From a virus: DNA of 64,000 nucleotides. Positions 40,442 through 58,951 of the stretch are shown here, in pieces. Under the pieces are notes generated by a model. It worked only from the letters and a program-made list of their open reading frames with translations. It ran no database searches and was not told the DNA's origin. The stretch spans positions 17,602 through 81,601 of IMG/VR virus record IMGVR_UViG_3300042507_003741; one strand, 5' to 3'. Position 1 is the stretch's first letter. Each line of letters starts with the position of its first letter. Position numbers and translations under genes: made by a program.

Positions 40442-41098
40442 TCACCGTGTCTCCTTCAAGCCAGAAAGCACGCCGGGCTGCTGCTGTTGGGCGGCTCCAG
40501 CCCCGATCAGTGCAGGCACGGCCATGATGCGAACCGCATTCCGCAAGTGATGGTCGGGGAGGACAAACTCCCGGTCGTGATTGCGGGAACTTCCAGAGAA
40601 CGGCGTGTTGCGGACGTTGTATTGCGGCAACTCGTCGGCAGGCACGTCGATTCGGTAGATCGGCGCCTCCAGGTCGTTGTCGCCCACGTAGTAGTCCAGT
40701 TCGTGCGGGGCGTCTGTTGCCCACCGCCCTGCTGCGCCGGGCGGGTTGGGATCGAACTGATCCTGCATGGCATAGTCCCGCGAGCGCTTCCACTCGGCAT
40801 ACGGAACCTGCTGGCCCCACATGTTCACCGTTTCCGGCGGCTTGTAGTTGAGCGCGGTTTCGCCAACGCGATAGGTCCGCACGTAGCCCTCTGAGGGAGG
40901 CTCGGCGGCACCGATGCGGCGAGTCAGTTCATCGAACCGCTGCTGGTGCAGGGGGTTCCCTTTGTGGTATCCGCCCACAGATCGAGGCGGGGCAGGAACG
41001 GGTGCGGGCGGGGCTGGAGCGCGGACTTGCTCCGCCAACTCCGCCACCTTAGAGGCCCGCCCCAGACGGGCGGCAGCGAGCGCAGCGGGTGTTGCCAT
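40442..41098 (-). CDS. hypothetical protein, possible ADP-ribosyltransferase-like fold
   Basis: RTYRVG, GRWATD, YRIDVP, REFVLP spacing. Confidence 0.45.
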   Translation of the reverse strand: MATPAALAAARLGRASKVAELAEQVRAPAPPAPVPAPPRSVGGYHKGNPLHQQRFDELTRRIGAAEPPSEGYVRTYRVGETALNYKPPETVNMWGQQVPYAEWKRSRDYAMQDQFDPNPPGAAGRWATDAPHELDYYVGDNDLEAPIYRIDVPADELPQYNVRNTPFSGSSRNHDREFVLPDHHLRNAVRIMAVPALIGAGAAQQQQPGVLSGLKETR

Positions 41099-41113
41099 AG
41101 AAATCCCTCACGG

Positions 41114-41124
41114 GATTTATGGCC
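41114..41124 (-). promoter_or_regulatory. putative late-promoter motif GGCCATAAATC
   Basis: Upstream of head operon; flanking GTGAGGGAT shared with 58938 site. Confidence 0.55.
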
Positions 41125-41126
41125 GC

Positions 41127-41270
41127 CTACTTCGCCAACAGGTACAAACCCACGTTGGAGAAGGCGTACCCCAAGTAGGCGACCCCCATGCCGGGATTGC
41201 CCCGCCAGAACTGCTCGGCGGAGACGTAGGCGTAGATCAGCCCCGTCAGTGCTATCAGCCATCCGCTCAT
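41127..41270 (-). CDS. 47-aa membrane protein
   Basis: Hand translation MSGWLIALTGLIYAYVSAEQFWRGNPGMGVAYLGYAFSNVGLYLLAK. Confidence 0.6.
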   Translation of the reverse strand: MSGWLIALTGLIYAYVSAEQFWRGNPGMGVAYLGYAFSNVGLYLLAK

Positions 41271-41367
41271 TCGTCGTACGGGTAACCGTCCTCCGGGTCT
41301 TCGGTGTACGGGCCGGGCTCCGCGTCCTCATGGAACCAGGGGCGTACGTCGGGGTAGGTGGCTTGTG

Positions 41368-41694
41368 TCACTTTTCGACAGTTTCCGTGCCATCGCTCGG
41401 CGGGGCCGGGAGCGGCATCCAGTTAGTGATCCCGAATGAATCCACATCGTCATCGTCCATGCCGCAGAACCGCCACATCACCCCGTCATGCGATGCCATC
41501 TGAGCAAGGCGAATGTCTTTCGGAAACGCTCTTGTGACAGCCAAGACGGCGGCATGCACTTCCGGCAGCCGCTCCGTCACCGGAATCCAGCGCGGCACTT
41601 GCTCCTCCAACTCTTCGATCTCGGCGTGCATCCTCCGCTCCTCTGGCGTGCAGTCGCAGTTCATGGGCTTCTGGTCGCAGATCGGGCAATACAT
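41368..41694 (-). CDS. DUF551-like small phage protein
   Basis: RWIPVTERLPE..VL..ITNWMPLPAPP. Confidence 0.75.
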   Translation of the reverse strand: MYCPICDQKPMNCDCTPEERRMHAEIEELEEQVPRWIPVTERLPEVHAAVLAVTRAFPKDIRLAQMASHDGVMWRFCGMDDDDVDSFGITNWMPLPAPPSDGTETVEK

Positions 41695-41714
41695 CCTACT
41701 TCTCCTCTACGCTC

Positions 41715-41763
41715 ACAGAACCAAGCGATGCAGCGGACGAGACGCTGATCGCCAGCGTTCTCA
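41715..41763 (+). repeat. attC: attC site 1 (49 bp)
   Basis: ACAGAAC-CAAGC-GATGCAGC-GGACGAGAC-GCTGATC-GCCAGC-GTTCTCA: R'', 5-nt spacer, L'' with extra base, L', 6-nt spacer, R'. Confidence 0.85.
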
Positions 41764-42053
41764 CTCATCGACACTAACTGCGGCGCCTTCAACGGTCGGC
41801 TCATTGAGTTCATAGGCCGGAACATCAGCCTCCACCCACCGAATCTGTTTGTCGCCGTCGTTTCCTTCCATGCACTCATACGCAATGTTGGCGGCTTCGC
41901 GACCAGCGTTCTGCCAGCCGTTTGCGGAATAATTGCCATCCTCCGACACGCACACCGCTATGCGAACCCGAATCGTTTTTGCTTCGCTCATTGCCTGTCT
42001 CCTGTTCTTGTGAGAACCACGCGATGCAGCGGACGAGCCGCTGATCGCTGGCG
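41758..42053 (+). mobile_element. gene cassette A (296 bp)
   Basis: Start G/TTCTCAC is the reverse complement of own R'' GTGAGAAC. Confidence 0.8.
41761..41991 (-). CDS. cassette A hypothetical protein (76 aa)
   Basis: MSEAKTIRVRIAV...; AGGAG RBS; TGA lies in R' of attC1. Confidence 0.7.
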   Translation of the reverse strand: MSEAKTIRVRIAVCVSEDGNYSANGWQNAGREAANIAYECMEGNDGDKQIRWVEADVPAYELNEPTVEGAAVSVDE

Positions 42054-42059
42054 TTATGC
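42011..42059 (+). repeat. attC: attC site 2 (49 bp)
   Basis: TGAGAAC-CACGC-GATGCAGC-GGACGAGCC-GCTGATC-GCTGGC-GTTATGC. Confidence 0.9.
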
Positions 42060-42323
42060 GGTCGGGTACTTCTTCTGAAACTGCTCGTACGTCATCGCGT
42101 CCCCTTGGCCGCCGACGCCTGTTGCGATGAATGACCCGCGCGATACCCGGATGGATTTCACGCCCTTCAACTTCTTCCGGCCGGTGAACTCGCGGTATCT
42201 GATTGCTGACCAGCCCTTGCCTTGGCAGTGGATGCAGACCACAGCCTCCCCTTCGCCTTCGCACATGCCGCGATACAGGCCCGCCCCATGGCATTCGTCG
42301 CACTCACACTTGATGTCTGGCAT
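42054..42323 (-). CDS. cassette B protein with DnaJ-type Zn-finger repeats
   Basis: CDECHGAG, CIHCQGKG; GGAGG RBS; TAA formed by first three cassette bases. Confidence 0.75.
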   Translation of the reverse strand: MPDIKCECDECHGAGLYRGMCEGEGEAVVCIHCQGKGWSAIRYREFTGRKKLKGVKSIRVSRGSFIATGVGGQGDAMTYEQFQKKYPTA

Positions 42324-42392
42324 TTGTCCTCCTGAGTCAACCGCATAACCAGCGGATGAAGCGGACGGCGGGGCCGCCGCTGATCCTGCGTG
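42054..42392 (+). mobile_element. gene cassette B (339 bp)
   Basis: Start G/TTATGCGGT is the reverse complement of own ACCGCATAAC. Confidence 0.85.
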
Positions 42393-42398
42393 TTCTCA
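42343..42398 (+). repeat. attC: attC site 3 (56 bp)
   Basis: GCATAAC-CAGCG-GATGAAGC-GGACGGCGGGGCCGCC-GCTGATC-CTGCGT-GTTCTCA. Confidence 0.85.
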
Positions 42399-42704
42399 GC
42401 CCAGCCGTTGCAGTATCGATTCAACAGCCACCCTATGCGGCTCATACATGATCGTCGGAAGCATCCGACGGAGCGCCTCCCGCTCCGCGTCGGTGAGCGT
42501 GGGCTGCGGCTCGCGGTAGAGCGACTGCACTGCCATGTCGCCCGCAGCAACCATCTCTGCGTCAGGCCGGTGCAGAAAAAAGTCCGCGTGGTCAGTCCAC
42601 TCAACCATCCACGCCACCGGCTGAGAACCACGCGATGCAGCGGACATATCATCTACCTCGTCTGCCATGGTTGCTCCTGTGTTCGATGCCGCTGATCGCT
42701 GGCG
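42393..42704 (+). mobile_element. gene cassette C (312 bp)
   Basis: Start G/TTCTCAGCC is the reverse complement of own GGCTGAGAAC. Confidence 0.85.
42396..42668 (-). CDS. cassette C protein (PVAW / LTDAERE module)
   Basis: RBS AGGAG and ATG lie inside attC4 loop; stop in R' of attC3. Confidence 0.7.
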   Translation of the reverse strand: MADEVDDMSAASRGSQPVAWMVEWTDHADFFLHRPDAEMVAAGDMAVQSLYREPQPTLTDAEREALRRMLPTIMYEPHRVAVESILQRLG

Positions 42705-42710
42705 TTCTAA
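42622..42710 (+). repeat. attC: attC site 4 (89 bp)
   Basis: TGAGAAC-CACGC-GATGCAGC-(49 nt)-GCTGATC-GCTGGC-GTTCTAA; arms identical to attC2. Confidence 0.88.
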
Positions 42711-42940
42711 TTGGTCCGCTCAAGCAGGCCGTCGATCACGGCGGCGACCTCCACACTGTCGGCAAACCGCCCCGCGAAGTAGTCTTCTCGCACTCGCCGC
42801 AGCACCTTCCTCAGCGACTCCCGCTCCTCGTCGGTGGGCCGCAGGCGTGCGACCTCCGCCTCTAACTGCTGCACTCGCTCCATCGCCTGGATTAGTGCAT
42901 CCAGATCGTCAGGCATCATCGGCGGCACAAGATCACTCAT
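42707..42940 (-). CDS. small protein with TDEERE..GLLERT module
   Basis: AGGAG RBS; TAG stop in R' of attC4. Confidence 0.65.
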   Translation of the reverse strand: MSDLVPPMMPDDLDALIQAMERVQQLEAEVARLRPTDEERESLRKVLRRVREDYFAGRFADSVEVAAVIDGLLERTN

Positions 42941-42970
42941 GTCTGTCTCCTTTACGTTGAAATCACGCAA

Positions 42971-43201
42971 TCACTTCCTGTCGATCACCTTGCGTAGCGT
43001 GTCGGCATCCCGTCGCCGCTCGTCCCCCAGTTGCTCAAGCCTCTCGCGCAGAATGGAGTTCACGCCGCGCAGCCGCCATATCTCGTCTACCAGCGGATCG
43101 GCGCCGGTAGCCCAATGCAGCAGCCACGCCGATCCAATGAACGACGCCGGGATGAGTACGGCCAAGGAGAACCACGCATACCAAGGCATTTCGTTAGGCA
43201 T
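42971..43201 (-). CDS. small membrane protein
   Basis: Hydrophobic N-terminus plus coiled coil. Confidence 0.55.
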   Translation of the reverse strand: MPNEMPWYAWFSLAVLIPASFIGSAWLLHWATGADPLVDEIWRLRGVNSILRERLEQLGDERRRDADTLRKVIDRK

Positions 43202-43922
43202 TTGTTGTCCTCTCCAGAAGGCCGTCCAGCACCGCCGCTATCTCGTCGCACGCCACATCGCCAACGTCGGCGTAGGCGTCGCGTACTTCACGCAGGACGA
43301 ATCGCTCCGCGTCGGTCAGCGTGAACGGCGTCAGCGAGCAGTGAAGCGTAGTGCGGCCAACAACGTGGGGGCAGGTCTGCGGGGTGCGGTAGAGCGGGAC
43401 GACCTCCCCGTCGTTTTCGTCCGCTGCCGCGTCGGCGTGTTCGCGGTGCAGCGAAACCATCTGCCATTCGTCGGAGTGTGCCAGCCACGCCACCGGATCC
43501 TGTGTATTGTGCCCCCGCCCACCCGCCGCCTCGCCGGTGCCGGGCCGCGTAACGTCTAGGGGCCGCCCCTCGCCGCTTCCATCGCTGGAGGCCGGTGGCT
43601 GCGCTATCGCAGGCGAGGAGCCATCTGTCTCCACGCATGGTGGAGCAGTCTGATTGCCGGTGCCCAACACGGGTCGCGTCACGGGTTTATCAGTCCCGCC
43701 GCTGCCGCGTCCTTCAGACGCATGAACGCCTGTTGGCAACTGGACTCTCGCCGCCGGCGCGGCGTCATGTTCGGTTCGCTCCCGCTCGCGGAGCATGGCG
43801 TCGGCCCAGCGGTAGGCAGCCGTGAGTAGGTGTTCCCACTGCAATGCAGTTGGGTACTGATTGGCCTCGTCTGACAGCAGCCCGGTCAGGGCCGCAGCGG
43901 CGAAGTGGTCACGGTCTGTCAT
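43194..43922 (-). CDS. modular phage protein (RDHFAAAAL / PVAW / LTDAER modules)
   Basis: MTDRDHFAAAALTGLL..AY..ADAML; C-terminus related to 42396-42668 and 42707-42940. Confidence 0.65.
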   Translation of the reverse strand: MTDRDHFAAAALTGLLSDEANQYPTALQWEHLLTAAYRWADAMLRERERTEHDAAPAARVQLPTGVHASEGRGSGGTDKPVTRPVLGTGNQTAPPCVETDGSSPAIAQPPASSDGSGEGRPLDVTRPGTGEAAGGRGHNTQDPVAWLAHSDEWQMVSLHREHADAAADENDGEVVPLYRTPQTCPHVVGRTTLHCSLTPFTLTDAERFVLREVRDAYADVGDVACDEIAAVLDGLLERTTNA

Positions 43923-44146
43923 GTCTTGTCCTCCTCGTTGGCCCACAGCATTGCGGCCTTCTCGTCCCAGCAGTCAGCCCGTCCCATGTCGAACCAGTGC
44001 GGGAAATGTCGCAGCACAGCCCGCGCCTCTTGGCGAACCTCCGTGCGGATCCCCTTGATGCCGCCCTCCACATAGACGTTGGAGAGCCGCACCAGGAAGT
44101 CGCGGGCACGGAGGACCGCTAGCGTTCGTTCACACGGGAGGGTCAT
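43919..44146 (-). CDS. BPSL0761-like small protein
   Basis: MT.P.ERT.AVL..RDFL..VRQEAR..LRHFP. Confidence 0.65.
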   Translation of the reverse strand: MTLPCERTLAVLRARDFLVRLSNVYVEGGIKGIRTEVRQEARAVLRHFPHWFDMGRADCWDEKAAMLWANEEDKT

Positions 44147-44427: not shown

Positions 44428-45069
44428 TCACCCCATGTGCTTACGAGTTTTTGCTGGAGCCTTTGCAGCTCGGCCTCCAGCGTCCGGATGCGTCTTCGCA
44501 ACGTATCGTTCTCTCTCTTCAGTCTCTCCTCCTCCTGCAAGGAAGGCTTCGGTTGGTCCATCTACTAGGTCCAGATAGGCGTGCGGGTACAAGAGGTTGA
44601 TCAACGAATCGGCCGTACGGAGGTGCGCTTTCGGGGCGACGAGGACCGGCACCTCATGCCCACGGCCGCGGTCAAACGTAACGGCCTCTGTCCAGCTCTC
44701 GTCACGGTCCAGGATGGTGAGCCACACCCACTTGCCAGTGGGCTTCGACAGGTACACGTAGATGAGGTTCTGCGTGGACTCCATCTCAAGGCCGCGCAGG
44801 TCATCGACAAAAACCGTGTCGTAGGGATAGGACTCCGGATCATCGAACGACAGGCTCCGCTCCTTGATCTCAATGGAGAACAGCCCAAGGGCGTCAGGGG
44901 TTTCAACATGTCCAGTTTTCCTGCAATGCTGTTTGACAACTATCTTCTTGCCGTGAGCGACCGACCGTCCGCTGGTCCGCATCGCCTCCACCCATTTGCG
45001 TTCGGCCGCCTGGCCTTTAACGAGTGCCGACTGGAATGAACGCATAGTCGTTCCAAAAGGAGTAGACAT
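44428..45069 (-). CDS. PD-(D/E)XK nuclease-like protein (start uncertain)
   Basis: G..AE, TPD..IEIKER. Confidence 0.55.
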   Translation of the reverse strand: MSTPFGTTMRSFQSALVKGQAAERKWVEAMRTSGRSVAHGKKIVVKQHCRKTGHVETPDALGLFSIEIKERSLSFDDPESYPYDTVFVDDLRGLEMESTQNLIYVYLSKPTGKWVWLTILDRDESWTEAVTFDRGRGHEVPVLVAPKAHLRTADSLINLLYPHAYLDLVDGPTEAFLAGGGETEERERYVAKTHPDAGGRAAKAPAKTRKHMG

Positions 45070-45535
45070 GCATGGCAACCGGCACGCGCGGCTGACCAAC
45101 CATGCAGCCCTGGATCACACCCGCAGCCCGCAGCTCCGCCGCGCGCTTGTACAACTCCTCCGGGGGCACATCGTCTCGCTGGAGCCCGCATTCCAGGAAC
45201 TCCAGGCGTTCCGGGATGGGCTCGTTCGCCTTTATCTCATCCGCGTTGTCGCGGACGGCCTTGGCCCAACGATTCGACCGGGAGAAAATCTCTGCGATGT
45301 CGGCGTCATCCAAGCCCCAGTCACGCATGACCACCAGGGCCAGACGCTCGGGCGACGGCATGTAAGTCAGCCGCTTCAGCAGCCGCACCGCACCCTGGGT
45401 CTGCGGGCCCAGCAGACCCAGGATCCTGGCCACGTAGGACGCCGGCTGGCCGTTCACCAGACACCGACGCTTCAGCTCGGGGGCGTGAGCCAAAGCATGC
45501 CGCAATACGACGCCACAGTCTGCGAAACCAACCAT
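45017..45535 (-). CDS. HTH DNA-binding protein candidate
   Basis: ERLALV.MRDWGL....IAEIFSRS..W, similar to sigma region 4-type HTH. Confidence 0.45.
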   Translation of the reverse strand: MVGFADCGVVLRHALAHAPELKRRCLVNGQPASYVARILGLLGPQTQGAVRLLKRLTYMPSPERLALVVMRDWGLDDADIAEIFSRSNRWAKAVRDNADEIKANEPIPERLEFLECGLQRDDVPPEELYKRAAELRAAGVIQGCMVGQPRVPVAMHVYSFWNDYAFIPVGTR

Positions 45536-45647
45536 CTTTCCTCTCCTCCTTGATGAAAGTTGTGGGGAAAACGTGATCCACATCGAAGTAATCCAAGACC
45601 TCCTGGAGCGTGTCATCCAGGAGAACGTCAGGCCGTTTGCTTGCCAT
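45321..45647 (-). CDS. hypothetical protein
   Basis: Coupled to helicase end; overlaps next gene. Confidence 0.4.
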   Translation of the reverse strand: MASKRPDVLLDDTLQEVLDYFDVDHVFPTTFIKEERKDGWFRRLWRRIAACFGSRPRAEASVSGERPAGVLRGQDPGSAGPADPGCGAAAEAADLHAVARASGPGGHA

Positions 45648-47130
45648 GTCTCCTATCCCTCTCCTTGCGAAACAGACTGCTCACCCAACCTTTGGTGTTC
45701 ACTGCGGCCCACCGCAGATACCAATCAGGCAACGTGTTGAGCGTGCGGCCGGCGAACTTGCCTTTCAGCGGGTTCACATACGTTCCGACGCACCGCTTGC
45801 CCGAGCCGATCTGCACCTCCTCGGAGAACAGACGGCCCGTCGCTTGGCCCTGCATCCGCTTGCGGCGGGCTTCGATGTCCTGGGCAATCAGCCGGCGCTC
45901 CAGTTCCTGCTGGGCCAGGGCGTCGATCTGCTCCTGGGTCAGCGGCTCGGCGGCTTGAGCGGCAGCCTTCTTGATGACCTGGCGCACTTCCTTGTCGGCC
46001 GTGCAGAACATGTCCACGGCTGTGACGAGTCGGTGGTCCAGGCTTGCATCAGTGCAATCGACAATCTTGAAACGTGGCTTTCCAGATCCTGCGATCCGTG
46101 CAATACGGCCGGATGGATCCGAGCCTTCGTAGTCCACAACTCCGGGGAGAGGACGAGTGGCTCGTCCCACGCATTGCAACCAGAAAGATCGGGACTTTGT
46201 GGGCCTTCCGAGGATGAGGGTGGCGGTCGGCGGATGATCGAAGCCAACGGCCACAACTTGGCAATTGACAAGAACCTTCGCCTCTCCAGTCTTAAATCGC
46301 CGGATAGCATCTTGCCGTTCCTCCTCGGGCTGGGTGCCGTACACATAGACCGCAGGGATGCCGTAGTTGTTGGTCAGGTAGTGGCAGACACCCTTGGCCG
46401 AGGCGACCGATGGCGTGAACACAACGGTCGGCCCCTCCATCTCTTCCTGGGTAATCAGGGCGATACGGTGGAGGTTGGCTTCCTTTTCCACGGCCTGCTG
46501 GAGCTGCTTTTGGTTGAAGTCATCACCCGAGACAGTGACTCCAGACAGATCCAATTCCTGAACGCGGGCCAGCTTGCACACATAGGGAGCCGACCACCCC
46601 TGTTCGATGGCCCACTGAACATCGCGGTTGCAGATTTCATGCTCGTAGAAGTCCCGCATCGCCGTCCCGTCCATGCGGAAGGGAGTCGCAGTGAACCCTG
46701 CGACCATCGCCCCACGCTCCTGGAACCAGCGGAACATCTCCAGGCAGGCCGGCGAGAATTGAAGGTGGGCTTCGTCCACAATCACAAGCCGGATGTCGGT
46801 GAACTTCTTGTAGCGGCCACGGATCAGCGTCTGCTTGCACCCGACGATGACCTTGGGGCTCCACCACTCGTCCTCCTGGGAGCGGTACTCGGCCATCTCC
46901 ATCCCGGGATCGGCGCCCGTGATGTCGCGCACCTTGTCCACGGCCTGCCAGACCAGTTCCCGGAGCGGGGCGAGGATGAGCGTCCGGCCAGAGATGCGTT
47001 TGGCCGTCTCAACGAACACCACCGTCTTCCCCGCCCCGGTGAACAGGCCCGTCAGCGTAGACCGAACCCCATCTGCGAGCGCACGCAGGTGAGCGTCTAC
47101 GATCTCGGATTGGTAATCACGCAGTTGCAT
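45628..47130 (-). CDS. superfamily 2 DEAH-box helicase (second copy)
   Basis: LRDYQ, TGAGKT, DEAH, TATP, QCVGRATR. Confidence 0.9.
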   Translation of the reverse strand: MQLRDYQSEIVDAHLRALADGVRSTLTGLFTGAGKTVVFVETAKRISGRTLILAPLRELVWQAVDKVRDITGADPGMEMAEYRSQEDEWWSPKVIVGCKQTLIRGRYKKFTDIRLVIVDEAHLQFSPACLEMFRWFQERGAMVAGFTATPFRMDGTAMRDFYEHEICNRDVQWAIEQGWSAPYVCKLARVQELDLSGVTVSGDDFNQKQLQQAVEKEANLHRIALITQEEMEGPTVVFTPSVASAKGVCHYLTNNYGIPAVYVYGTQPEEERQDAIRRFKTGEAKVLVNCQVVAVGFDHPPTATLILGRPTKSRSFWLQCVGRATRPLPGVVDYEGSDPSGRIARIAGSGKPRFKIVDCTDASLDHRLVTAVDMFCTADKEVRQVIKKAAAQAAEPLTQEQIDALAQQELERRLIAQDIEARRKRMQGQATGRLFSEEVQIGSGKRCVGTYVNPLKGKFAGRTLNTLPDWYLRWAAVNTKGWVSSLFRKERDRRHGKQTA

Positions 47131-47152
47131 GGCTGTTGTGTGTGAAAGAGAA

Positions 47153-47187
47153 GCCCTGGGCGGAGTCGGAGGTTCTCCGCCCAGGGC
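47153..47187 (-). terminator. intrinsic terminator-like hairpin
   Basis: 13-bp stem GCCCTGGGCGGAG/CTCCGCCCAGGGC followed by TTCTCTTTC on minus strand. Confidence 0.55.
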
Positions 47188-47203
47188 GGGCGCGCGCCTC
47201 TTG

Positions 47204-47539
47204 TCAGGCGAAATCCCCTGCGTACTCAGGCTCGGCCTTGGACTTGCTGCCGCAGAGCTGGAGCGTCCGGACCTTCAGCACAGCCTTGCTGCGCTGCTGC
47301 CCGTCCTTCTCCCACTTCTGCGTCTGGAACTCCCCTTCCACCAGCACGGGCGTTCCCTTGGTCACGTAGCCGATGGCGCCGTTTGGCTTCCACCACTCGC
47401 AGTCAAAGAACTCCACGCTGTCCTTGTAGCCATTGCAGGCAATGCCGAACTTGGCAACTTCGTTCTCACCGACCTGGCGAATCTCGGGATCCTTGGTCAC
47501 ATTCCCGAGAGCAACGAAACGCTGGTAACCCATGATCAT
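47204..47539 (-). CDS. ssb: single-stranded DNA-binding protein
   Basis: GNVTKDPEIR, KG..VLVEG..QKWEKDGQ.RS, C-terminal DF. Confidence 0.9.
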   Translation of the reverse strand: MIMGYQRFVALGNVTKDPEIRQVGENEVAKFGIACNGYKDSVEFFDCEWWKPNGAIGYVTKGTPVLVEGEFQTQKWEKDGQQRSKAVLKVRTLQLCGSKSKAEPEYAGDFA

Positions 47540-48165
47540 TCCTCCTTGTTCTTCCAGACCCTGTTGAACTCCGACTCACAACGCTTGTAGACCTCCGGAG
47601 CCACGGCCTTTTCCTTGGCCCGCAGCCGGACGGTATCCAGATGCTTCTTCGCCGTGGCCTCGTCCTTGGCCTCTGCGATGGCCTTCTTGGCCTCGGCTTC
47701 GTACTGCATGGTCTTGGCGTGATTGGCAGGCTGTGCCTCTGCAATCGCCACGCTCTGCCCATCGTCATCCGCCTCGCCGCTGAACCCGCCAGCCAGGGCC
47801 ATGAGCAGCGTCCGCTTGGCGTAGGTCATGGCAGCCCCAAAGGACTGCATGTCGCTCTTGCCCATCAGCAACGGGGCGATGCCCGTGATGTACTCGCCCG
47901 ACAGGTGTCGCAGCGTGCCCATGACGATCCACTGACCGTTGACCACGCCCGGCCGGAAGTCCGGAAGAGCGATGCCGTTCTTCGTCAACGGTCCCCGCAA
48001 CGCCTCGCAGCACGCCGAGTAGGAGGCGAACTTGCTGCGAAAGTGCGGGTTGGCACTGTCGAACTTCACCACCGGGTAGTCGGCCTGGGCGGCTGCCAGG
48101 GCCTTGGTCAAATGGCCGGTCGCAGGCGAACTGCTCGGGCCCAAGATGTCGTTGTTGTCATTCAT
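47536..48165 (-). CDS. ERF-family single-strand annealing protein (second copy)
   Basis: NPHFRSKFAS, HLSGE, QSFGAAMTYAKR, DDDG. Confidence 0.88.
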   Translation of the reverse strand: MNDNNDILGPSSSPATGHLTKALAAAQADYPVVKFDSANPHFRSKFASYSACCEALRGPLTKNGIALPDFRPGVVNGQWIVMGTLRHLSGEYITGIAPLLMGKSDMQSFGAAMTYAKRTLLMALAGGFSGEADDDGQSVAIAEAQPANHAKTMQYEAEAKKAIAEAKDEATAKKHLDTVRLRAKEKAVAPEVYKRCESEFNRVWKNKEE

Positions 48166-49022
48166 ATGATCACCACCTCCTCCTGCTTGCCGCGGGCCCA
48201 ACGCGGGATCTCCATCTCCGTGATCTCGCCGTGATCAGCGGGCATGTAGATGCCGGTCGAACGACGCAGCCGAACCTCCTCCATCACGCTGACCAACCGC
48301 TGGCCAGCCTCCTCCACCAAGTCATCAGGCAGATGGAACACATGACACGCATAGGGCGGCATGGTCTGAACGAAGACGAACGGCATGCGGAACGGCTGGT
48401 AACCGACCTGTTCCGCACCGCGGCAGTACAGCCACTGCTGCTCCGCATAGCCGTAGTCAAAGACGCTGCGGTACAGCCGGTCCCAAGGAGCCGATGTGGT
48501 CTTGAGATCCCACCACAGTTCCGGGGTCACGCCGTCCGGACGCACCTTGAGAAGGTGTCCATGCTCGTCCTGCCAGAAGACTGACAACTGCGTCTCGGAG
48601 GTCTGGTCCATCAACGCTTTGGCGGCACTGTTGGCCTCCATGTTTTCGACCATCTTGCGATAGACCCAAGCCTGGTCGGCCGTACAGCAGATGCCCGTCT
48701 GGGCCGCCTCCCACTCCCGGTATGCCTTGGTGCTGCGGGAACCGTTTGCCCCCAGCACCTCATCCGGCGGGATGCAGACCAGGGAGTCGAAGGTCTTCCC
48801 GGCACACAGCCCCATGACGATCTCATCGAACTCCCCGCCACGCTTGGTGGCCGAGTTGCCCGTGAACAGGGGATAGCCCTGGTCCAGCCACTGCTGGGCC
48901 TCGCCGCCGCCCTTGAGGACAGCTAGCAGGAATGACCGGCTGTCGAACGCCTTGAGCGAGTGGTAGGCACTGCTCGCCATGCCGATGACCTTCACCGGCC
49001 CGTTAGAAACATCGATGTCCAT
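48162..49022 (-). CDS. RecE/DUF3799-like exonuclease (second copy)
   Basis: KVRPD, DLKTT, Y.Y..Q..Y. Confidence 0.85.
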   Translation of the reverse strand: MDIDVSNGPVKVIGMASSAYHSLKAFDSRSFLLAVLKGGGEAQQWLDQGYPLFTGNSATKRGGEFDEIVMGLCAGKTFDSLVCIPPDEVLGANGSRSTKAYREWEAAQTGICCTADQAWVYRKMVENMEANSAAKALMDQTSETQLSVFWQDEHGHLLKVRPDGVTPELWWDLKTTSAPWDRLYRSVFDYGYAEQQWLYCRGAEQVGYQPFRMPFVFVQTMPPYACHVFHLPDDLVEEAGQRLVSVMEEVRLRRSTGIYMPADHGEITEMEIPRWARGKQEEVVII

Positions 49023-49045
49023 ATGTACACCTCCGAGGAAAAAAA

Positions 49046-49093
49046 CAGCCCGTCCGTGGGCGACCGTCCGATCCTTCAGCCCTTCCGTGGGCG
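49046..49093 (-). promoter_or_regulatory. tandem 17-bp repeats forming ACGGA-loop hairpins (CsrA/RsmA-like sites)
   Basis: CGCCCACGGA(A/C)GGGCTG twice, then T7 and GGAGG RBS of the exonuclease. Confidence 0.45.
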
Positions 49094-49247
49094 GAGCCTC
49101 CTGAACGCTTTGCCAAACTGTCCGGCGACAAGAAGGCCGAGACAGAGTTCCATTTGGTGCAGCCAGACGAGGGCTGCGAGAACGGCCAGATAGACCGTCT
49201 CTAAGATTGGCTCAACTCGCTCAAGCAGTGCGAGGAGCGACGGGCCG

Positions 49248-49270
49248 CTAACCAACTGAGCTAGTTGCCC
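49248..49270 (-). other. tRNA 5'-end-like fragment, candidate att core
   Basis: GGGCAACTAGCTCAGTTGGTTAG resembles acceptor strand plus D arm; ~80 bp upstream of recombinase. Confidence 0.45.
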
Positions 49271-49351
49271 GAAGCTCTGGAAATACCCCTTATGCTGGGG
49301 CGCCCAACCGTGCGAGGCACCGCGGCAATTATCCCCGGCGGGAGATACACC

Positions 49352-50179
49352 ATGACTTTGCTGGAGCTTGCTCGCCTCTACCACAACCGCGTGGGAGGAT
49401 CCACAGGATACCTGGAGCAACTGGAGGTTTTCGTCAGGCGACTGGACTGGCAGGCCAAAGACTTGCATCCCGACCGCATCGACGCCTACCTGACGGACGC
49501 CCTGAAGCATCTTGCTCCCTCCACCGTTCGCAACCACAGGAAAATGCTGCGTTGTCTGCTGCATTTCGCCGCCTCCGAGCGACTTGTGGACGCCAGTATA
49601 CTCAGGCCACTCAGGCGTGTCAAGCAGATTCCCCCAAACCCGAGGGCGTGGAGCCATGCGGAGATTCGTTCGCTTCTGGCGGCAGCCGCGAATCTGGCTG
49701 GTGGGCGCAAATGCCCGCGAGCCACGCTGGCACGGGCGTGGATCCTGGTGGCTTACTCCACCGGCCTGCGTCTGGATGACTTGCTTTCGATCAGGCATGA
49801 CCAAATCCGTGGCCAACGTCTCTGCCCCAGTCAGCACAAGGTGGGATGGCCCCATGTCTGCTGGCTGGATGACAATGCCCTGGCAGCCATACGACAACTG
49901 CCGATCCTTGGGCCGCGTATCTTTGGCGACCTGATCTGCCGAGACAAGGTGATGGCCCTGATGCGGCAGATCCGAAAGGCTGCCGGACTGCCTGGCAGCA
50001 CTAAGTTTCTGCGGCGATCAGGGGCGACCTACTGCGAAATCGCCGGGAAAGACGCCACTGGACACTTAGGACATAGAAGCCCTGGCATGAAGGCGTACTA
50101 CGTGGACAGGCTCTTGCTGGCCGAGGAGAAGCGGCAGGAACCTACGGCGCCACCGCTAGAACTGGTTGAGAGCCCCTAG
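49352..50179 (+). CDS. tyrosine recombinase/integrase (second copy)
   Basis: STGLR..DL, HKVG, KFLRRSGAT, LGHR, YYVD; GGAGA RBS. Confidence 0.85.
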   Translation: MTLLELARLYHNRVGGSTGYLEQLEVFVRRLDWQAKDLHPDRIDAYLTDALKHLAPSTVRNHRKMLRCLLHFAASERLVDASILRPLRRVKQIPPNPRAWSHAEIRSLLAAAANLAGGRKCPRATLARAWILVAYSTGLRLDDLLSIRHDQIRGQRLCPSQHKVGWPHVCWLDDNALAAIRQLPILGPRIFGDLICRDKVMALMRQIRKAAGLPGSTKFLRRSGATYCEIAGKDATGHLGHRSPGMKAYYVDRLLLAEEKRQEPTAPPLELVESP

Positions 50180-53100
50180 CATCTCTAGCGGATCCGCGGC
50201 CATCTTCTTCTTCTCGCGGGCTCGCTTTGCCGCTTCGCTTTGGATGATCTTGTACAAGAGGTACAAGTCCTTCTGCTCCTTCGGCATGGCCCGCAGCACA
50301 TCCTCGGGGACCGTGATGTTCTCATAGGTCCGGACGCCGGGCGTTGTCTCCAGGATGCTGTTGAGCATGTCCCGAGCAGCCTGCCGCTTGGCCCGATCCT
50401 GGTCGATGTCCGTGAGCTTGGCACCAGCCAAGAGGTTCCATGCTGCCTTGGTGTACTTGTCTGCCGGGGCCAGACGGTCATCGGTGAACTGTCGGTACAT
50501 GCCGAGGGCACGGGTGCCGAACGGCACAAAGTTGGTGACCACCTGCTCCAGCGGTCGGCCGATCTCACCGAAGTCCCGCTCCAAGACCGAGTACAGGTCG
50601 GTGAGATCCCGTCCAGAATAGAGCTGCCGGTTGGTGAAATACTCAATCGGGGCTTTGATGATCGGGCTGGTCATGCCCAGCAGATTGGACCCGGTCTGGC
50701 GGATGGTGTCGGCAATCCGGGACGAGGTGGTGGCACCCACGCCGGGCGTGACGGTGTTGAAGAACGCCTCCCAGGGAGCGTCGATGCTCGTCAGGAACCG
50801 TTGCAGGTTGGGATTCCCCGAGCCCCACTCAGGCGGAAGCGGAATGGCAGCCGACCGCCGCAGATGCTCGGGAATGAAGTTGTCCTCGCTCGGCTCCGTG
50901 CCTCTGGTGACCGCACGGATCGACTGCCCCATCAGACCGCCGGGGCGATAGAGCGTGTTGTTGACGATGCTGGGGACAATGCCCTTTTGGAAACTATAGA
51001 AGGGCAGCGCCCGCTTCAGGCGGTTGCGCTCAAAGGATGTAAAAGCCTGTGGCGAATAGTCCACCTGGCTGAGACGCACCAAGTCGGCCGCCTCTCCGGG
51101 ATCGACGCCCTTGCGCAACTGATTCAGGAACACGCCGCCACGCAAGGCATCTTCCGACACCGATCCAACGGCGTCGTTCAGCACCAGGAACGGATTGCGG
51201 TTCCGAGTCGGCGCCCGGTCCAAGATTCCAACGCCACGCAGGCTGAAGAAATCGTTGGCAAAGTCTCCCCAGGAGCGGCTTGGATTTAAGAACGCCCGAC
51301 CTACGCTCTGGTCATTGCCAGCCCCCAGCCAGCCGCCGCGGATCTGCTGCTCGGGCAGGCCGCTGATATCGTCCAGGATGTTGCCGCCGCCGATGCGATT
51401 AGCCGCGGTCAGGTCTTGGAAGCGGGCGACACGCTGCGCGGGGGTTAGGCCCTGGAAGCCCGGGGCCCTGGCTAGCCGGCGGGCCACTGCGTCGGTGTTG
51501 CCCATCGACGCTCGCAGCGCGGCCCACCAGTCCAGCGGATTGAAGGCACCGAACGTAGCGGCGTTGAGCTGGCCAGAATAGGTATTGCGGGTGTGGAACG
51601 CTGGGCTGGCGAGGGCACCCACCTTAAAGGCGTTGGTGAACCCATCCAGCAGGCCGACCATCCCACGCTCGGCATCGCCAGCCTGCGAGGATTTGACCAC
51701 CGTCCGCATCTGCTCAACCAGCCGCTCGGGCACGGCAAGGTTGGTGATGTCGGCGCCGAACCTCTGCTGCCACACTTGCCGCAGGTTGTCAGGATCGAAC
51801 CCAAGGCGGCGAGCGGCATCGGTGAGTTGCACCATGCCATCCGCCAGCCCGTTTGGCCCGATAACAGCAGTGGCCGCTTCCAGCCGCGGGATCAGCCGCT
51901 CGGCATTTGCCACCACGCGGCTCTGGCCACGCTCATAGCGAGACAGGTTCGTCCAGCCCGGGGTGTCGAAGATGCCCGTCCCGGTCTGCGCAAACTGCTG
52001 GTCGGAGCCGCGCAGCAAATTGACGAGCTGGTCCTGCCTCCTCTGGAGCGACCGCGTGGCCTCGGCCATCATCTGCTGCTGGGCCGGTGGGGCGGCGTTT
52101 TGGTATGCAGCGGACGCCTGGAGGTTAGAGATATCCTCCCGAAACGGACGGGCGATCCCGAGTTGATCGAAGGCATCGTCCAGCAGGTCGCGGGCCGGGA
52201 TCTGGTCAGCGGCAATCAGGCGCCGCTGGAGATCGGCCGCATCGAACGGCAGGCCGGCAGGTGTTCCTGGTGCCGACTGGAGCGCCCGGCCACCCGTCAG
52301 CAGGCGGAAGGTTCGCTGTCCGCCGGGGATGTCGGTGTAGTCCTGGCGGCTGCGGCCGAAGTTGTCGGCCGTATCCAGCAGCGTCTGGCTGCGGCCCCAC
52401 GGCTTCTCCACGCGCCCCGTGGCATTGGGCCGCACGGGATCCATGAGTCGCTCAAACCACTTCAACTGCCGCGGGAAGAAACCAGTACCAGAAGAACCTT
52501 GCCAATCTCTGTCAGGCAGGCCAGAGGCGACGGCGTTTTGCCTCGCCTGCTGCACCGCATCCATGTACGTGTCCCGCACCCCGCGGAACTCGTCCACGTT
52601 CTCCAGCACCCAGTCGGCCACGGCATCGCCGCTGGTTCGTTGCATTGGTCCGTACACGCCCGCGGCAGACGGCACGGCAGACGATTCGACATAATCCACC
52701 AACGCACGCTGAACGTCGGTGCTGTTGAACCGACGCAGCGAGTCGGGGATCGCAGCCGGGACGTTGGCAGCCCCAGCGGCACGCATGCCAGCCGCCACCT
52801 CCTCGGCGTCCACTCCAAGCACTTCGCGGAGCTGCCGCTGACGAAGGAGTTCTCTCGCCTCATCCGCCCGCGAGGCGTTCATCTTGGCAATGCGAGAGTC
52901 CCACTGGAGGTCGGGATTCAGCGTTCCGCCTGACGGGGCGTGGAATCCGGCGTACAGCGCGTTGACCACCGGGGCGGTGTAGGGGTTTCGCTTGGACGCT
53001 TCGCCCAGGGCATCCAGGCCGGTGGCAAGCCGGTTTCCAAACTGCTCGCCAAAGACATCGGTGCTGACTCCGATGTTGGTGCCGGGGATCCTGACATCCA

Positions 53101-53794
53101 TGAGCCTGGCGGCGCTGCCTGTCAGATCGTTTGGATCGACGCCATATCGCCGCGCCTGCTGTTGCCAGCGAGCAAGCGCCTCAGCCCGCGCGGTTGGGTC
53201 CGCGATCTCGTCCAACGCCTGCGCTGGCGTGATGGACCGCATGTAGCTGCGCACGCCGCGGCCTGCCGGGCGCCCAGCGCCTGCCGCTGTCCCGGCCCAT
53301 GCCTGCTCTGCCGCGTTTCGTAGAAGGCCCGTCGCCTTCATGGCCTTGCCAGTCTGTGTCAAAGCCCCGCGGCCAAGGATGGACAGAGGGTTGGCCCAGG
53401 TGAATGGATCCAGAAGCACCTCGGCGGCGAGCGATCCGGCGAAGTTGCCCCACGTATCCTTGTTGCCGATCATGCCATACTGCCGCAGCAGTTCGCGGCC
53501 AGTGACACGCTCCTCAGAATCCCCAAGAAACGACAGCGGCTTACCCGCCAGCACGCCACGCACCAAAGCCCCAGGCGTATCGAACAACCACCCGGCAGTG
53601 GCTAGACCGGAAGACCCAACCTGTGCCAGGGAGTTGAGCAGGCCGCTCTTCTCCTCCTGCGGCATGAGGTCGGCAATAGTCGCCCGCCGACGCAGTTCTT
53701 CCTCGGGGTCATCGGAAGGAAGAAGCCCGAGCTTTGCCTGCTCTTGCAACAGGCCATACGGATCGTAGAGGTCGAAGAGTGGAGACTGGGCCAT
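50156..53794 (-). CDS. large internal virion protein (second copy)
   Basis: Homologue of 11172-14660. Confidence 0.65.
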   Translation of the reverse strand: MAQSPLFDLYDPYGLLQEQAKLGLLPSDDPEEELRRRATIADLMPQEEKSGLLNSLAQVGSSGLATAGWLFDTPGALVRGVLAGKPLSFLGDSEERVTGRELLRQYGMIGNKDTWGNFAGSLAAEVLLDPFTWANPLSILGRGALTQTGKAMKATGLLRNAAEQAWAGTAAGAGRPAGRGVRSYMRSITPAQALDEIADPTARAEALARWQQQARRYGVDPNDLTGSAARLMDVRIPGTNIGVSTDVFGEQFGNRLATGLDALGEASKRNPYTAPVVNALYAGFHAPSGGTLNPDLQWDSRIAKMNASRADEARELLRQRQLREVLGVDAEEVAAGMRAAGAANVPAAIPDSLRRFNSTDVQRALVDYVESSAVPSAAGVYGPMQRTSGDAVADWVLENVDEFRGVRDTYMDAVQQARQNAVASGLPDRDWQGSSGTGFFPRQLKWFERLMDPVRPNATGRVEKPWGRSQTLLDTADNFGRSRQDYTDIPGGQRTFRLLTGGRALQSAPGTPAGLPFDAADLQRRLIAADQIPARDLLDDAFDQLGIARPFREDISNLQASAAYQNAAPPAQQQMMAEATRSLQRRQDQLVNLLRGSDQQFAQTGTGIFDTPGWTNLSRYERGQSRVVANAERLIPRLEAATAVIGPNGLADGMVQLTDAARRLGFDPDNLRQVWQQRFGADITNLAVPERLVEQMRTVVKSSQAGDAERGMVGLLDGFTNAFKVGALASPAFHTRNTYSGQLNAATFGAFNPLDWWAALRASMGNTDAVARRLARAPGFQGLTPAQRVARFQDLTAANRIGGGNILDDISGLPEQQIRGGWLGAGNDQSVGRAFLNPSRSWGDFANDFFSLRGVGILDRAPTRNRNPFLVLNDAVGSVSEDALRGGVFLNQLRKGVDPGEAADLVRLSQVDYSPQAFTSFERNRLKRALPFYSFQKGIVPSIVNNTLYRPGGLMGQSIRAVTRGTEPSEDNFIPEHLRRSAAIPLPPEWGSGNPNLQRFLTSIDAPWEAFFNTVTPGVGATTSSRIADTIRQTGSNLLGMTSPIIKAPIEYFTNRQLYSGRDLTDLYSVLERDFGEIGRPLEQVVTNFVPFGTRALGMYRQFTDDRLAPADKYTKAAWNLLAGAKLTDIDQDRAKRQAARDMLNSILETTPGVRTYENITVPEDVLRAMPKEQKDLYLLYKIIQSEAAKRAREKKKMAADPLEMLGALNQF

Positions 53795-53797
53795 TCG

Positions 53798-55447
53798 CTA
53801 CCGCAGATCGGAAGGCATGGGCTGCCAGAAGTCCCCGAACCAACCGCCGCGGCCGCCCGACCAGCCTGATGAGTACCCCCATCGCTGGATCAGGTCGCGG
53901 CGATAGGCCGGATCAGCAAGCGGCGACTTAATGCCGAGCAGCTCCGCTTGGCGCGCCAGGCCGAGGAGTTCGTCGTTCATGGCCGTAGCCTCACGCTCGC
54001 CAAAGCCGCCACCGGGGAGGTACTGGAAACGGTCGGATCGGCCGGCAATATCCTTCAGCGCATCGGATGCCTCTTGGCTGTCGGGCCGCCCAGTCATAAT
54101 GTCGTACAGGCCGGGAGACTGCTGCTTGTATGTCAACTCACCAAGTTGCCGCCGATCCGCGGACTCCTTGGCGGACTTCTCATCAGCGGCCTTGGCCGCC
54201 GCCTGCGTCTGCTGGCGCTGCACATCATTGGCGTCAGTGGCCATACGCTCGCGCGTCCCCCATTCACGCTCGCGGCTGTCGGCCTGATTTTGGGCGTCCA
54301 AAGCCCACTTCTCACGCTCGGTGCGCATGCGCTCAAAGAACTGTTCGCTCTCACGCTCCATGGCGGCGCGGCGTTCCTCACGCTCGGACCTGCGATCCTC
54401 CATGTTGGCCGCATGCTCCTGGGCACGGGCTTCGCGGTCGGCTGCGGCAATTGTCATCTGCGCTTCAATGGCCTTGAGCCGCGCATCGCCGGCCGGATCC
54501 TGCCGCGCCGCATTGGCGGCCTCAACACCCAGCGGCGTAGGCCCAAAGTTGATCGGACCACCAGGCCGGTTGGCGTTCAGTGCGGCGTTCTGCTGGTTCA
54601 TAATGGAAGAACGCATGGCATCGTCCATGCCTGGCAGAGCCAAGGCGCCCGCGTAGTTGCCTGCCCGCATCATTACCATGGCACGCCACTGGAGGTCGCG
54701 GGCCTGTTTGTCAGCCTGACGCTTTTGGGCGGCGGCAAGACGCAGGTCGCCGTCCGACATGTTTGTGGTGGCCTCGGCATCCTGACTTAGTCCGGCTTCA
54801 CGCGCCCACCGCGGCCGGCTGACGGCGTCGGTGTATCGCTCGTCCGCGGCGTTCAGAAGAGCGCGGGAAGCCTGGCTGCCGGCTCCACCCTTGGCGGCGT
54901 CGATCTCCAGCGCCCTTCGATTTTCGTTGGCGCTAGTCTGGTTGGCGAAATGCGGAACGTACACCTGCCCCTGTTGGCGAGCCGCAAGCCACGCTTGGGC
55001 CTCGGACTCGCCGTACTTGCGCTTAATATTGTCGTACAGCGAAACATCTTCTTTCGCCTTAGATGCGGCCTGCTGTGCCGCAAACTCCTGCGGACGATAC
55101 CGCTGCATCTCGTCAGGGTTGTCGGCCAGGAACTGGTCCCAGCTCGCCCGCTGCTCCGGAGTGCCGGGATCGACGGGCGTCTGTGGGTGTAGACCTGCCC
55201 GGCGAATCCGGCCCCGTTCGGCGGCCATGCGCGCGCTGTCGGCCGGTGCGCCGACTTCCGGCTCCATGGCAATCGGCGTGGCAGAGGCTTCTAGGTCGGC
55301 GGCGACGTTGGCCGGCTCGTTAGACCATCCCGGAAGAGCGCCACGGCGAGCCAGTTCCTGCTTGGCGGCTTCAGACAGGCCAGTGCCATCTTCGTTATTC
55401 AGGTAGCCCAGAAGCTCGTCGTTGCTCTTGTTCGCCAGCCAGCTCAT
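53798..55447 (-). CDS. putative internal virion protein
   Basis: Helical Ala/Arg/Gln-rich; syntenic position. Confidence 0.55.
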   Translation of the reverse strand: MSWLANKSNDELLGYLNNEDGTGLSEAAKQELARRGALPGWSNEPANVAADLEASATPIAMEPEVGAPADSARMAAERGRIRRAGLHPQTPVDPGTPEQRASWDQFLADNPDEMQRYRPQEFAAQQAASKAKEDVSLYDNIKRKYGESEAQAWLAARQQGQVYVPHFANQTSANENRRALEIDAAKGGAGSQASRALLNAADERYTDAVSRPRWAREAGLSQDAEATTNMSDGDLRLAAAQKRQADKQARDLQWRAMVMMRAGNYAGALALPGMDDAMRSSIMNQQNAALNANRPGGPINFGPTPLGVEAANAARQDPAGDARLKAIEAQMTIAAADREARAQEHAANMEDRRSEREERRAAMERESEQFFERMRTEREKWALDAQNQADSREREWGTRERMATDANDVQRQQTQAAAKAADEKSAKESADRRQLGELTYKQQSPGLYDIMTGRPDSQEASDALKDIAGRSDRFQYLPGGGFGEREATAMNDELLGLARQAELLGIKSPLADPAYRRDLIQRWGYSSGWSGGRGGWFGDFWQPMPSDLR

Positions 55448-55454
55448 TCCAACC

Positions 55455-56981: not shown

Positions 56982-57231
56982 TCTTCTTCGCCTTCTTCTT
57001 GGGAAGGTCCGCCAGCTCACCGTCGCCAGGAAGATCGTCTTCGGCTACCTCGGGAGTGTTCGGCTTGCCGTGCATCTCCTCGTCCAGGTCAGCCAGGTCG
57101 TTCTTCTCAGCCCGCTTCTGGAGCTTGTCCAGGATCTTCTTCTCGTCACCGTCCTTGGCGACCAGGAGTTGCTTCACCATGCGCTCCAGAGCCGAGCGGT
57201 TGAGGTCACGGATGTCGAAGTCCATCTTCAT
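56974..57231 (-). CDS. small acidic/basic protein
   Basis: Homologue of 20616-20921. Confidence 0.7.
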   Translation of the reverse strand: MKMDFDIRDLNRSALERMVKQLLVAKDGDEKKILDKLQKRAEKNDLADLDEEMHGKPNTPEVAEDDLPGDGELADLPKKKAKKNG

Positions 57232-58923: not shown

Positions 58924-58937
58924 GCATATCCCTCACT

Positions 58938-58948
58938 GACTAATGTCC
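58938..58948 (-). promoter_or_regulatory. putative late-promoter motif GGACATTAGTC
   Basis: Variant of segment 1 motif at the syntenic position. Confidence 0.5.
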
Positions 58949-58951
58949 GTT

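Follow-up and report, generated by a model that had tools for sequence, protein, structure and literature searches.

Attachment sites of the integron type are already on record from phages: 17 attC clusters without an integrase (CALINs) have been reported, their attC sites having been found by IntegronFinder, and the cassettes of two virulent phages are described, in the part of that report accessible to us, as co-oriented in the way they are in bacteria (Qi et al., 2023; PMC9892861). Translation signals within an integron recombination site are on record as well. According to the accessible part of a review (PMC8876359), ORF-11/ORF-18 in attI1 of class 1 integrons place a Shine-Dalgarno sequence and an ATG in the recombination site, from which a frame enters the cassette and aids its translation, and short open reading frames (ORFs) within attC, in work cited there, relieve the block that the attC hairpin poses to ribosomes. 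Here we analysed a 64,000-nt window (bases 17602-81601 of the 81.6 kb IMG/VR virus record IMGVR_UViG_3300042507_003741; positions below are those of the window) that holds four co-oriented imperfect palindromes on its minus strand at 41716-42710, spaced by single small early genes. We consider it likely that the last of these, copy 4, is an integron-type attC, one of four in an integrase-less array (CALIN) whose genes are coded on the attC bottom strand, and that the gene of copy 4 has its start within the attC loop.

The record stems from an uncultured lake phage whose genes within the window include those for a major head protein, a portal, virion proteins and helicases; the minus strand carries nearly all of the genes there. 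Read along that strand, each palindrome shows the same order of upstream stop codon, AAC, 6-nt spacer, GATCAGCGG, loop, CCGCTGCATC, 5-nt spacer and GTT. The AAC and GTT triplets stand at the outer ends of all four copies, and the heads (TGAGAAC, CATAAC, TGAGAAC and TAGAAC) hold the stop codon of the preceding gene. In copies 1-3 the loops measure 5-12 nt and the next gene begins ~20 nt past the hairpin. Both arms were listed four times in a repeat search (repeat families D2/D3), and the arm pattern matched five times in the window against 0.45 expected (0 of 100 shuffles reached five). When the whole 81.6 kb record was scanned with up to 5 mismatches, a single match with 4 or fewer lay outside the array (a right arm, window position 1331), and the left arm of copy 3 fell below the ≤4-mismatch threshold. 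The array and the unit that we assign to copy 4 consist of the following elements, with the evidence for each in brackets.

41716 to 41763, minus strand: attC copy 1, short loop, intergenic (repeat search, arm pattern, fold).
42012 to 42059, minus strand: attC copy 2, 5-nt loop, intergenic (repeat search, arm pattern, fold).
42344 to 42398, minus strand: attC copy 3, 12-nt loop and variant spacers, opening with the TGA stop of the 90-aa gene (repeat search, arm pattern).
42393 to 42704, minus strand: inferred cassette of 312 nt, from the C of one AAC to the AA of the next, comprising attC copy 4 and its gene (flank complementarity, polarity, linkage, breakpoints).
42619 to 42710, minus strand: attC copy 4 in its long-loop form; in bottom-strand reading it consists of an R' and an L' box with a spacer between them, the 45-nt loop, and an L'' and an R'' box, again separated by a spacer (sequence, repeats, DNA and RNA folds, homology to integron attC).
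42704 to 42710, minus strand: R' box TTAGAAC, holding the TAG stop (42709-42707) of the upstream gene (sequence).
Between A42705 and C42704, minus strand: predicted crossover, two bases past the upstream stop (analogy with the canonical bottom-strand cut between AA and C, and breakpoints of related phages).
42698 to 42706, minus strand: AAC (42706-42704), then the spacer GCCAGC (42703-42698) (sequence).
42689 to 42697, minus strand: L' box GATCAGCGG, the 5' half of the inner stem (sequence, fold, covariation with L'' in the inner 5 bp).
42644 to 42688, minus strand: 45-nt variable terminal loop of the 'L-a' type, with a 4-nt stem extension catc/gatg (loop type found in 45 viral contigs and, in the clustered set, as 46 copies).
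42674 to 42678, minus strand: Shine-Dalgarno sequence AGGAG, 5 nt ahead of the ATG and unpaired in the predicted RNA fold (sequence, fold, invariance in 35 distinct loop sequences).
42666 to 42668, minus strand: proposed start codon ATG within the loop (frame opens in 37 of 42 contexts).
42626 to 42643, minus strand: L'' box CCGCTGCATC (42643-42634), spacer GCGTG (42633-42629) and GTT (42628-42626), encoding AASRG (sequence, fold, codon-position variation).
42619 to 42625, minus strand: tail CTCAGCC of the R'' box, cassette-specific and complementary to the GGCTGAG before the AAC of copy 3 (42395-42401) (sequence, flank rule).
42396 to 42668, minus strand: cassette gene of 90 aa, starting MADEVDDMSAASRGSQPVAW, of the PVAW...LYR.PQPTLTD.ER...LQRLG family (ORF, 75 homologues at E 0.01 or less, alignment).
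42606 to 42608, minus strand: alternative start ATG (Met21), opening the 70-aa database gene call P0001 (homologues conserve QPVAW upstream of Met21).

In viral contigs, a pattern built from the conserved core bases matched at least 117 stretches; the exact matches number 134, spread over 119 loci. A stricter finder counted 262 sites in the window together with 151 loci (1.46 Mb), and in no locus did they lie on both strands. The loops of the viral sites fell into length classes of 5-7, 11-14 and 43-47 nt. Bacterial matches to the core pattern came from 22 contigs, mostly of Planctomycetota, Thermoanaerobaculia and other metagenome-assembled genomes (MAGs), and most of these bacterial sites read CTAAC-spacer-GATCAGCGG-loop-CCGCTGCATC-spacer-GTTAGGC or GTTGGGC, thus possessing canonical R boxes, and lie in arrays. 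An integron integrase (TIGR02249) was found beside such motifs in Engelhardtia mirabilis (integrase at 230639-231571, nearest motif at 229741, ~0.9 kb away) and in a Planctomycetota MAG (161245-162186, nearest motifs at 160289 and 160740, 0.5-0.9 kb), scoring above the cut-off as one gene in both, and further away in a Gemmatimonadales MAG (13494-14436, nearest motif at 2582, ~11 kb), in which the gene was matched in two adjoining pieces, one of them above the cut-off, and may be frameshifted. The inner 5-bp stem, for which the search fixed only the outer anchors, was perfectly complementary in 290 of 340 distinct sites and occurred in nine complementary versions (AGCGG/CCGCT in 209, AGGAG/CTCCT in 43, AACAG/CTGTT in 14, and six rarer ones). 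Such compensatory changes point to selection on the structure, as is the case for attC. The outer triplets, which the finder did not require, were present at high frequency (AAC in 169 and GTT in 195 of 233 matches). Judged by these sequence comparisons, copy 4 is a homologue of integron attC.

The flanks of the sites bear the mark of cassettes. We scored pairs of sites less than 450 nt apart for whether at least four bases after the GTT of site n are the reverse complement of the bases before the AAC of site n+1, and found this in 83% of close pairs (n = 46), against 9.4% of random pairs (n = 20000), 13% for a site's own pair (n = 233) and 6.5% in a reversed control. Complementary flanks of this kind, which occur three times in the window (GTTCTCAGCC/GGCTGAGAAC, GTTATGCGG/CCGCATAAC and GTTCTCAC/GTGAGAAC), are the classic signature of units that were once circular and entered by a crossover inside the hairpin.

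In integrons the attC bottom strand is the one that folds and is cut, canonically between AA and C. All four bacterial cassette ORFs with Pfam support (GNAT in locus L160; EthD, DMP19 and UDG in locus L173) lie on the strand opposite to the phage-sense motif, and the phage coding strand therefore corresponds to the attC bottom strand. G.T pairs are more frequent on the phage coding strand than on the other (29 vs 10), and the folds predict single-base bulges in the L'' (3') arm of the strand that codes in the phage; in copy 4, where the arms pair in the predicted DNA fold as well as in the RNA fold, these bulges are C42637 and G42631 of the minus strand's 3' arm. A test based on the longest open frame gave 17 opposite vs 5 same in bacterial loci and 114 vs 89 in phage loci, where it did not separate the strands and is thus weak. 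The usual layout, in which the attC comes after its gene and the top strand codes, is not found in the phage, where the genes lie on the bottom strand.

Which gene a hairpin travels with was examined by comparing loci that share sequence on one side of a site only (blastn, 160 nt). The loop type was shared by 47% of the downstream-only pairs (n = 70) and by 15% of the upstream-only pairs (n = 34), with a baseline of 17%. Among nine pairs with bodies at least 99% identical, six break at the 5' spacer or immediately outside the hairpin on its 5' side, a further one has its break at the GTT side and two are unclear; in six pairs sharing the upstream gene only, divergence sets in at the first base after AAC in three, at +5 in one, in the L' box in one and after the whole hairpin in one. 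Polarity, linkage and breakpoints thus lead us to define the phage cassette as attC, gene and stop, with the crossover between AA and C, which in the present case gives a unit from 42704 to 42393. The sequence-only reading had recognised an attC, named its 3' arm L'' and R'' and assigned the downstream gene to the site as its own cassette; the attC identity is borne out by the arrays near integrases, the stem covariation and the cassette hallmark, and the naming and assignment turned out to be right by the polarity evidence.

The same repeats might instead be conserved linkers for ordinary homologous recombination by the phage's own genes, with circles released between direct repeats re-entering by a single crossover at any point of the core and no integrase involved. 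Such a crossover would produce the flank complementarity too, the arms (18 nt) are near-identical between sites, the window encodes a PDDEXK-like DUF3799 protein, no IntI was detected in any of the six phage records examined, and some breakpoints do fall at the GTT side or in the loop. We nonetheless regard this explanation as unlikely: it leaves aside the homology to attC arrays beside true integrases and the strict co-orientation of sites in 151 loci, the compensatory changes in the stems reveal selection for the folding of a single strand, and breakpoints most often directly follow AAC or coincide with the 5' border of the hairpin.

If copy 4 is an integron-type attC, its loop appears to do more than close the hairpin. 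AGGAG, 5 nt and ATG are present on the minus strand at 42678-42674 and 42668-42666, as the sequence-only reading had it, and the centre that it gave as 49 nt lies where it was placed, measuring 45 nt by the arm boundaries used here. The 90-aa frame crosses the 3' arm, which encodes its residues SAASRGSQ, so that the claimed read-through of L'' and R'' (SAASRGS) was reproduced, as was the non-coding nature of the arms of copy 2 (42012-42059, intergenic). A pattern for this loop type matched 45 viral stretches in 42 distinct contexts, the window included. In 37 of the 42, a frame of 62-159 aa begins at the loop ATG, and ~27 different protein bodies (by reading of the output) are joined to it; three of the remaining contexts are cut by the end of the locus, and two give frames of 19 and 21 aa that end at a TGA overlapping or directly preceding the start of the next gene, as in translational coupling. 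The frame of the GGT codon after the site is open for at least 60 codons in 29 of 33 sites of this loop type; of 96 short-loop sites, 33, 20 and 21 are followed by an open first, second and third frame, respectively. Where a second loop type has its ATG in another frame, it is that frame that is open (5 of 5). At least 10 unrelated loop sequences follow the same plan of a stem extension, a motif resembling a Shine-Dalgarno sequence, an ATG and 6-8 codons, and across 35 distinct loop sequences neither AGGAG nor ATG varies. We then classed 306 distinct phage sites by their loop, the loci having been selected by pattern, so that the counts are not prevalences.

Short loop, 120 sites: no loop start in 120; frames of 60 or more codons, short frames and frames cut by the locus end, 0 each.
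Long loop with the usual stems, 122 sites: frame of 60 or more codons in 82, no loop start in 29, short frames in 9, cut by the locus end in 2.
Long loop with AGGAG stem, 64 sites: frame of 60 or more codons in 60, no loop start in 0, short frames in 2, cut by the locus end in 2.

In the AGGAG-stem variant (L207:1420-1560 and 63 other sites) the L' box GATCAGGAG is itself the Shine-Dalgarno sequence and is paired with a CTCCT inside the coding region, making it a possible translational switch. Another 26 sites in related loci (e.g. L014:12651, L069 and L075) have a 46-nt loop type without a start codon, in which the hairpin is extended (cccgcga...tcgcggg) and has the look of a nested second hairpin.

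Of 24 aligned homologues of the 90-aa protein, S.AS.GS precedes QPVAW in 16, a different N-terminus is joined at PVAW in six and two are called from MVEW, in line with the suggestion that this peptide could serve as a protein-level tag for such cassettes. In relatives of one homologue the leaders SPASAGS and SVASAGS are encoded by the variant attC arms GATCAGGAG...CTCCTGCATC and GATCAACAG...CTGTTGCATC (15 of 27 loci inspected). The arm-less N-terminus MNTDNTQPVAW (L183/L185, ~1500-1560) goes back to a 39-nt in-frame deletion of the 3' arm that kept the 5' arm and the loop start, and the attC of this cassette is, to judge from its sequence, inactivated. The loop ATG is probably the true start, and the proposal that a cassette obtains translation signals and an N-terminal peptide from its own site finds comparative backing in the 37 of 42 open frames and in variants that go with the downstream gene.

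A reading that accepts the hairpin as attC could still have the gene start at Met21 (ATG 42608), with the loop ATG as an unused, accidentally open extension. It draws on the database call of 70 aa (P0001), on the two homologues called from MVEW, on a GGTGG 5 nt ahead of Met21 and on the ease with which long open frames arise by chance in high-GC DNA. Chance openness is hard to square, however, with 37 of 42 contexts in which 62-159 aa are open from the loop ATG and two exceptions that stop at the next start, with the lack of any frame preference behind short loops, or with the invariance of AGGAG and ATG noted above; moreover, homologues with otherwise different N-termini retain QPVAW, which lies upstream of Met21. 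We therefore think a start at Met21 improbable.

Hairpins that act only in RNA (in processing, stability or translational coupling), with the attC likeness a matter of ancestry, would have a precedent in phage T7, whose early genes are each directly followed by RNase III hairpins of ~20 bp with bulges. The hairpins of the window likewise lie on the coding strand directly past stop codons, the bias of G.T pairs to the coding strand (29 vs 10) fits a function in RNA, and in the 64 AGGAG-stem sites the Shine-Dalgarno sequence itself forms the stem and pairs with CTCCT in the coding region. T7 RNase III hairpins, however, are not known to have AAC/GTT cores, flanks specific to a cassette or homologues next to integrases. 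No Rfam family matched at 41000-44000 (just a chance snoRNA match below threshold), no T-tract follows the hairpins, and the gene-specific complementary flanks and the reshuffling of genes at the sites would stay unexplained, while a role in RNA is compatible with recombination. A purely RNA-level function thus seems very unlikely to us. Terminators were dropped for want of a T-tract after the hairpins, and REP/RAYT-type and IS200/IS605-type hairpins, N4-type hairpin promoters and stoperator-like repressor sites once the bacterial homologues beside integrases had been found.

Several observations weigh against the reading of copy 4 as an integron-type attC with a start codon in its loop. The integron integrase (TIGR02249) was found neither in the phage's own record nor in any of five related phage records, and recombination would need a host enzyme, since the phage is without an integron integrase. 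The long hairpin of copy 4 is no more stable than shuffles (z of -0.7 as DNA and -0.5 as RNA; the short hairpin of copy 2 is more stable, at -2.5 and -2.2). The R-box tails of the window (GTTCTCA, GTTATGC, GTTCTCA and GTTCTGT) deviate from GTTRRRY, and the stop codon of the upstream gene lies within the heads. The sites were gathered by patterns derived from the window, so that the conservation of the arms is partly by construction; the hairpin is linked to the downstream gene in only part of the cases (47%), and linkage and breakpoint pairs are not independent. At least three near-identical gene pairs (L142/L013, L019/L067 and L112/L003) break at the GTT side, and exchange at some sites clearly took place elsewhere in the core as well. 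As to the start codon, the database gene call of the window begins at Met21, and the arm-encoded codons are near-invariant at all three positions, the loop codons of the leader varying just slightly more at the third position (0.20) than at the first and second (0.12 and 0.11); from this near-equal variation we conclude that the leader appears to be dictated by the DNA and that the peptide is weakly selected.

In the absence of an integron integrase, the array is to be classed as a CALIN: four sites lie within 1 kb and the record has no intI, and the arrangement of a complete integron, with intI beside attI and array, was found neither in this record nor in the five related ones. Two compact ORFs resembling tyrosine recombinases, on a plus strand that is empty apart from them (window 10359-11183 and 49265-50179), gave partial PF00589 matches without an IntI signature, and both score far below every NCBIfam curated cut-off; tyrosine recombinase relatives occur in two of the five related phage records by protein search and in four by PF00589. 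The phage's own tyrosine recombinase was rejected as the acting enzyme, as it is not IntI-like and nothing links it to the attC sites. Three short contigs binned to bacterial MAGs (L157, L161 and L163, one to a Pirellulales MAG of a lake series) carry phage-type short attC with phage-like flanks, and may be mis-binned phage, prophage or a hint of the host.

With copy 4 taken as an attC of such a CALIN, the folded minus strand, as DNA, would be the substrate of a host integron integrase acting in trans, which would move attC and gene as a unit, each attC standing at the 5' end of its own cassette gene and the crossover between AA and C falling two bases past the upstream stop. At most sites, with loops of 5-7 nt, the ribosome-binding site of the gene would lie 3' of the hairpin. 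In the mRNA of copy 4 the Shine-Dalgarno sequence and AUG would be displayed in the loop and the ribosome would then melt the 3' arm; translation from the loop through the L'' and R'' boxes would yield the leader M.DEVDEMSAASRGS, with its second half set by the recombination site. In the AGGAG-stem type the Shine-Dalgarno sequence is paired with codons 13-14 and, more speculatively, might be opened by a ribosome ending at the R' stop ~10 nt upstream. As a wider scenario, plausible in our view and yet short of likely, this lake phage lineage may keep early accessory genes as cassettes traded via a host integrase, with one hairpin serving both as single-stranded DNA substrate and as mRNA start (Shine-Dalgarno sequence and AUG in the loop, or a stem-locked Shine-Dalgarno sequence opened by a terminating ribosome). 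If so, dozens of unrelated early proteins would have a common N-terminal leader encoded by attC.

The surroundings of the array yielded further observations. The gene upstream of copy 4 belongs to a small group of paralogues:

42707 to 42970, minus strand: small gene upstream, with a frame of 87 aa and a likely start at ATG 42940, which follows AAGGAG; paralogue by its C-terminal LTD.ER...LLER module (sequence, repeat family D4).

Three adjacent genes (window 42396-43946, minus strand) have in common this C-terminal LTD(A/E)ER...LLER module and a 27-nt DNA near-repeat (family D4), and in other phages the C-terminal endings ERLG or ERTK, each followed by the stop codon, occur directly before many attC sites. 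The cassette gene between copies 3 and 2 (42054-42323, minus strand) encodes an 89-aa Cys-rich protein (CECDECHGAG...CIHCQGKG) that resembles a zinc finger. AGCT is missing from window 1-44466 and from the preceding 17.6 kb of the record and occurs 42 times in 44467-64000, and CTGCAG is missing from the whole 81.6 kb; since AGCT sets in at 44467, at a distance of 1.8 kb from the attC array, two phages of different restriction histories may be joined in this record, or the assembly may be chimeric. Cultured phages gave no match to the array DNA in a DNA search, the 480-aa virion gene had no match in a protein search, and the helicase has relatives only at 33% identity or less.

The array stretch also occurs in lake-water metagenome runs. 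In four of them (X1-X4), Logan contigs over window 41689-42704 end at every attC, and their summed depth in attC-arm bins is ~3-100 times that of flanking bins; from this excess we conclude that the arms are a very abundant repeat in these lake communities. Joints between sites in the Logan contigs have short sides, probably from other phages, and are silent on excision either way.

These findings bear on how attC sites are viewed. An attC is usually treated as the non-coding tail of a cassette, and here it would also be promoter-distal expression hardware and part of a protein, with a recombination site constraining an N-terminal sequence and an S.AS.GS peptide marking cassette genes in protein databases. 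Integron-type cassette arrays prove to be common in one uncultured phage lineage rather than rare oddities, and site-specific cassette exchange would be a testable route for the shuffling of phage early genes, tying phage evolution to a host integrase. In the literature that we searched, which did not extend to supplementary tables, neither a gene start inside an attC loop nor bottom-strand-coded phage cassettes were described.

Akin to the phage CALINs, as far as the accessible part of their description goes (PMC9892861), the present array has imperfect hairpins with AAC/GTT cores and, in the predicted folds, bulged bases, co-oriented sites, one small gene per unit, complementary R boxes and no integrase. 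It differs from them, within the same compass, in that one highly similar attC type recurs in well over 100 viral contigs, in that the genes lie on the attC bottom strand and most R boxes depart from GTTRRRY, and in being known from sequence alone. With ORF-11/ORF-18 of attI1 it has in common a recombination site that brings its own Shine-Dalgarno sequence and ATG, with a frame running into the cassette; those ORFs, in the passages of the review at hand (PMC8876359), reside in attI, cross the crossover point, encode short peptides and work by termination-reinitiation, whereas here the signals lie in the attC loop of the same cassette and mostly give an in-frame fusion (37 of 42 contexts), with coupling in only two cases. 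The short ORFs within attC offer the last parallel: the hairpin that an attC forms in the mRNA influences how the following gene is translated, and an ORF within the attC works against this. As portrayed in those passages (PMC8876359), they belong to a top-strand attC that lies 3' of a gene and act on the next cassette, whereas the attC of copy 4 is read on its bottom strand, stands 5' of its own gene and is proposed to supply the start codon itself.

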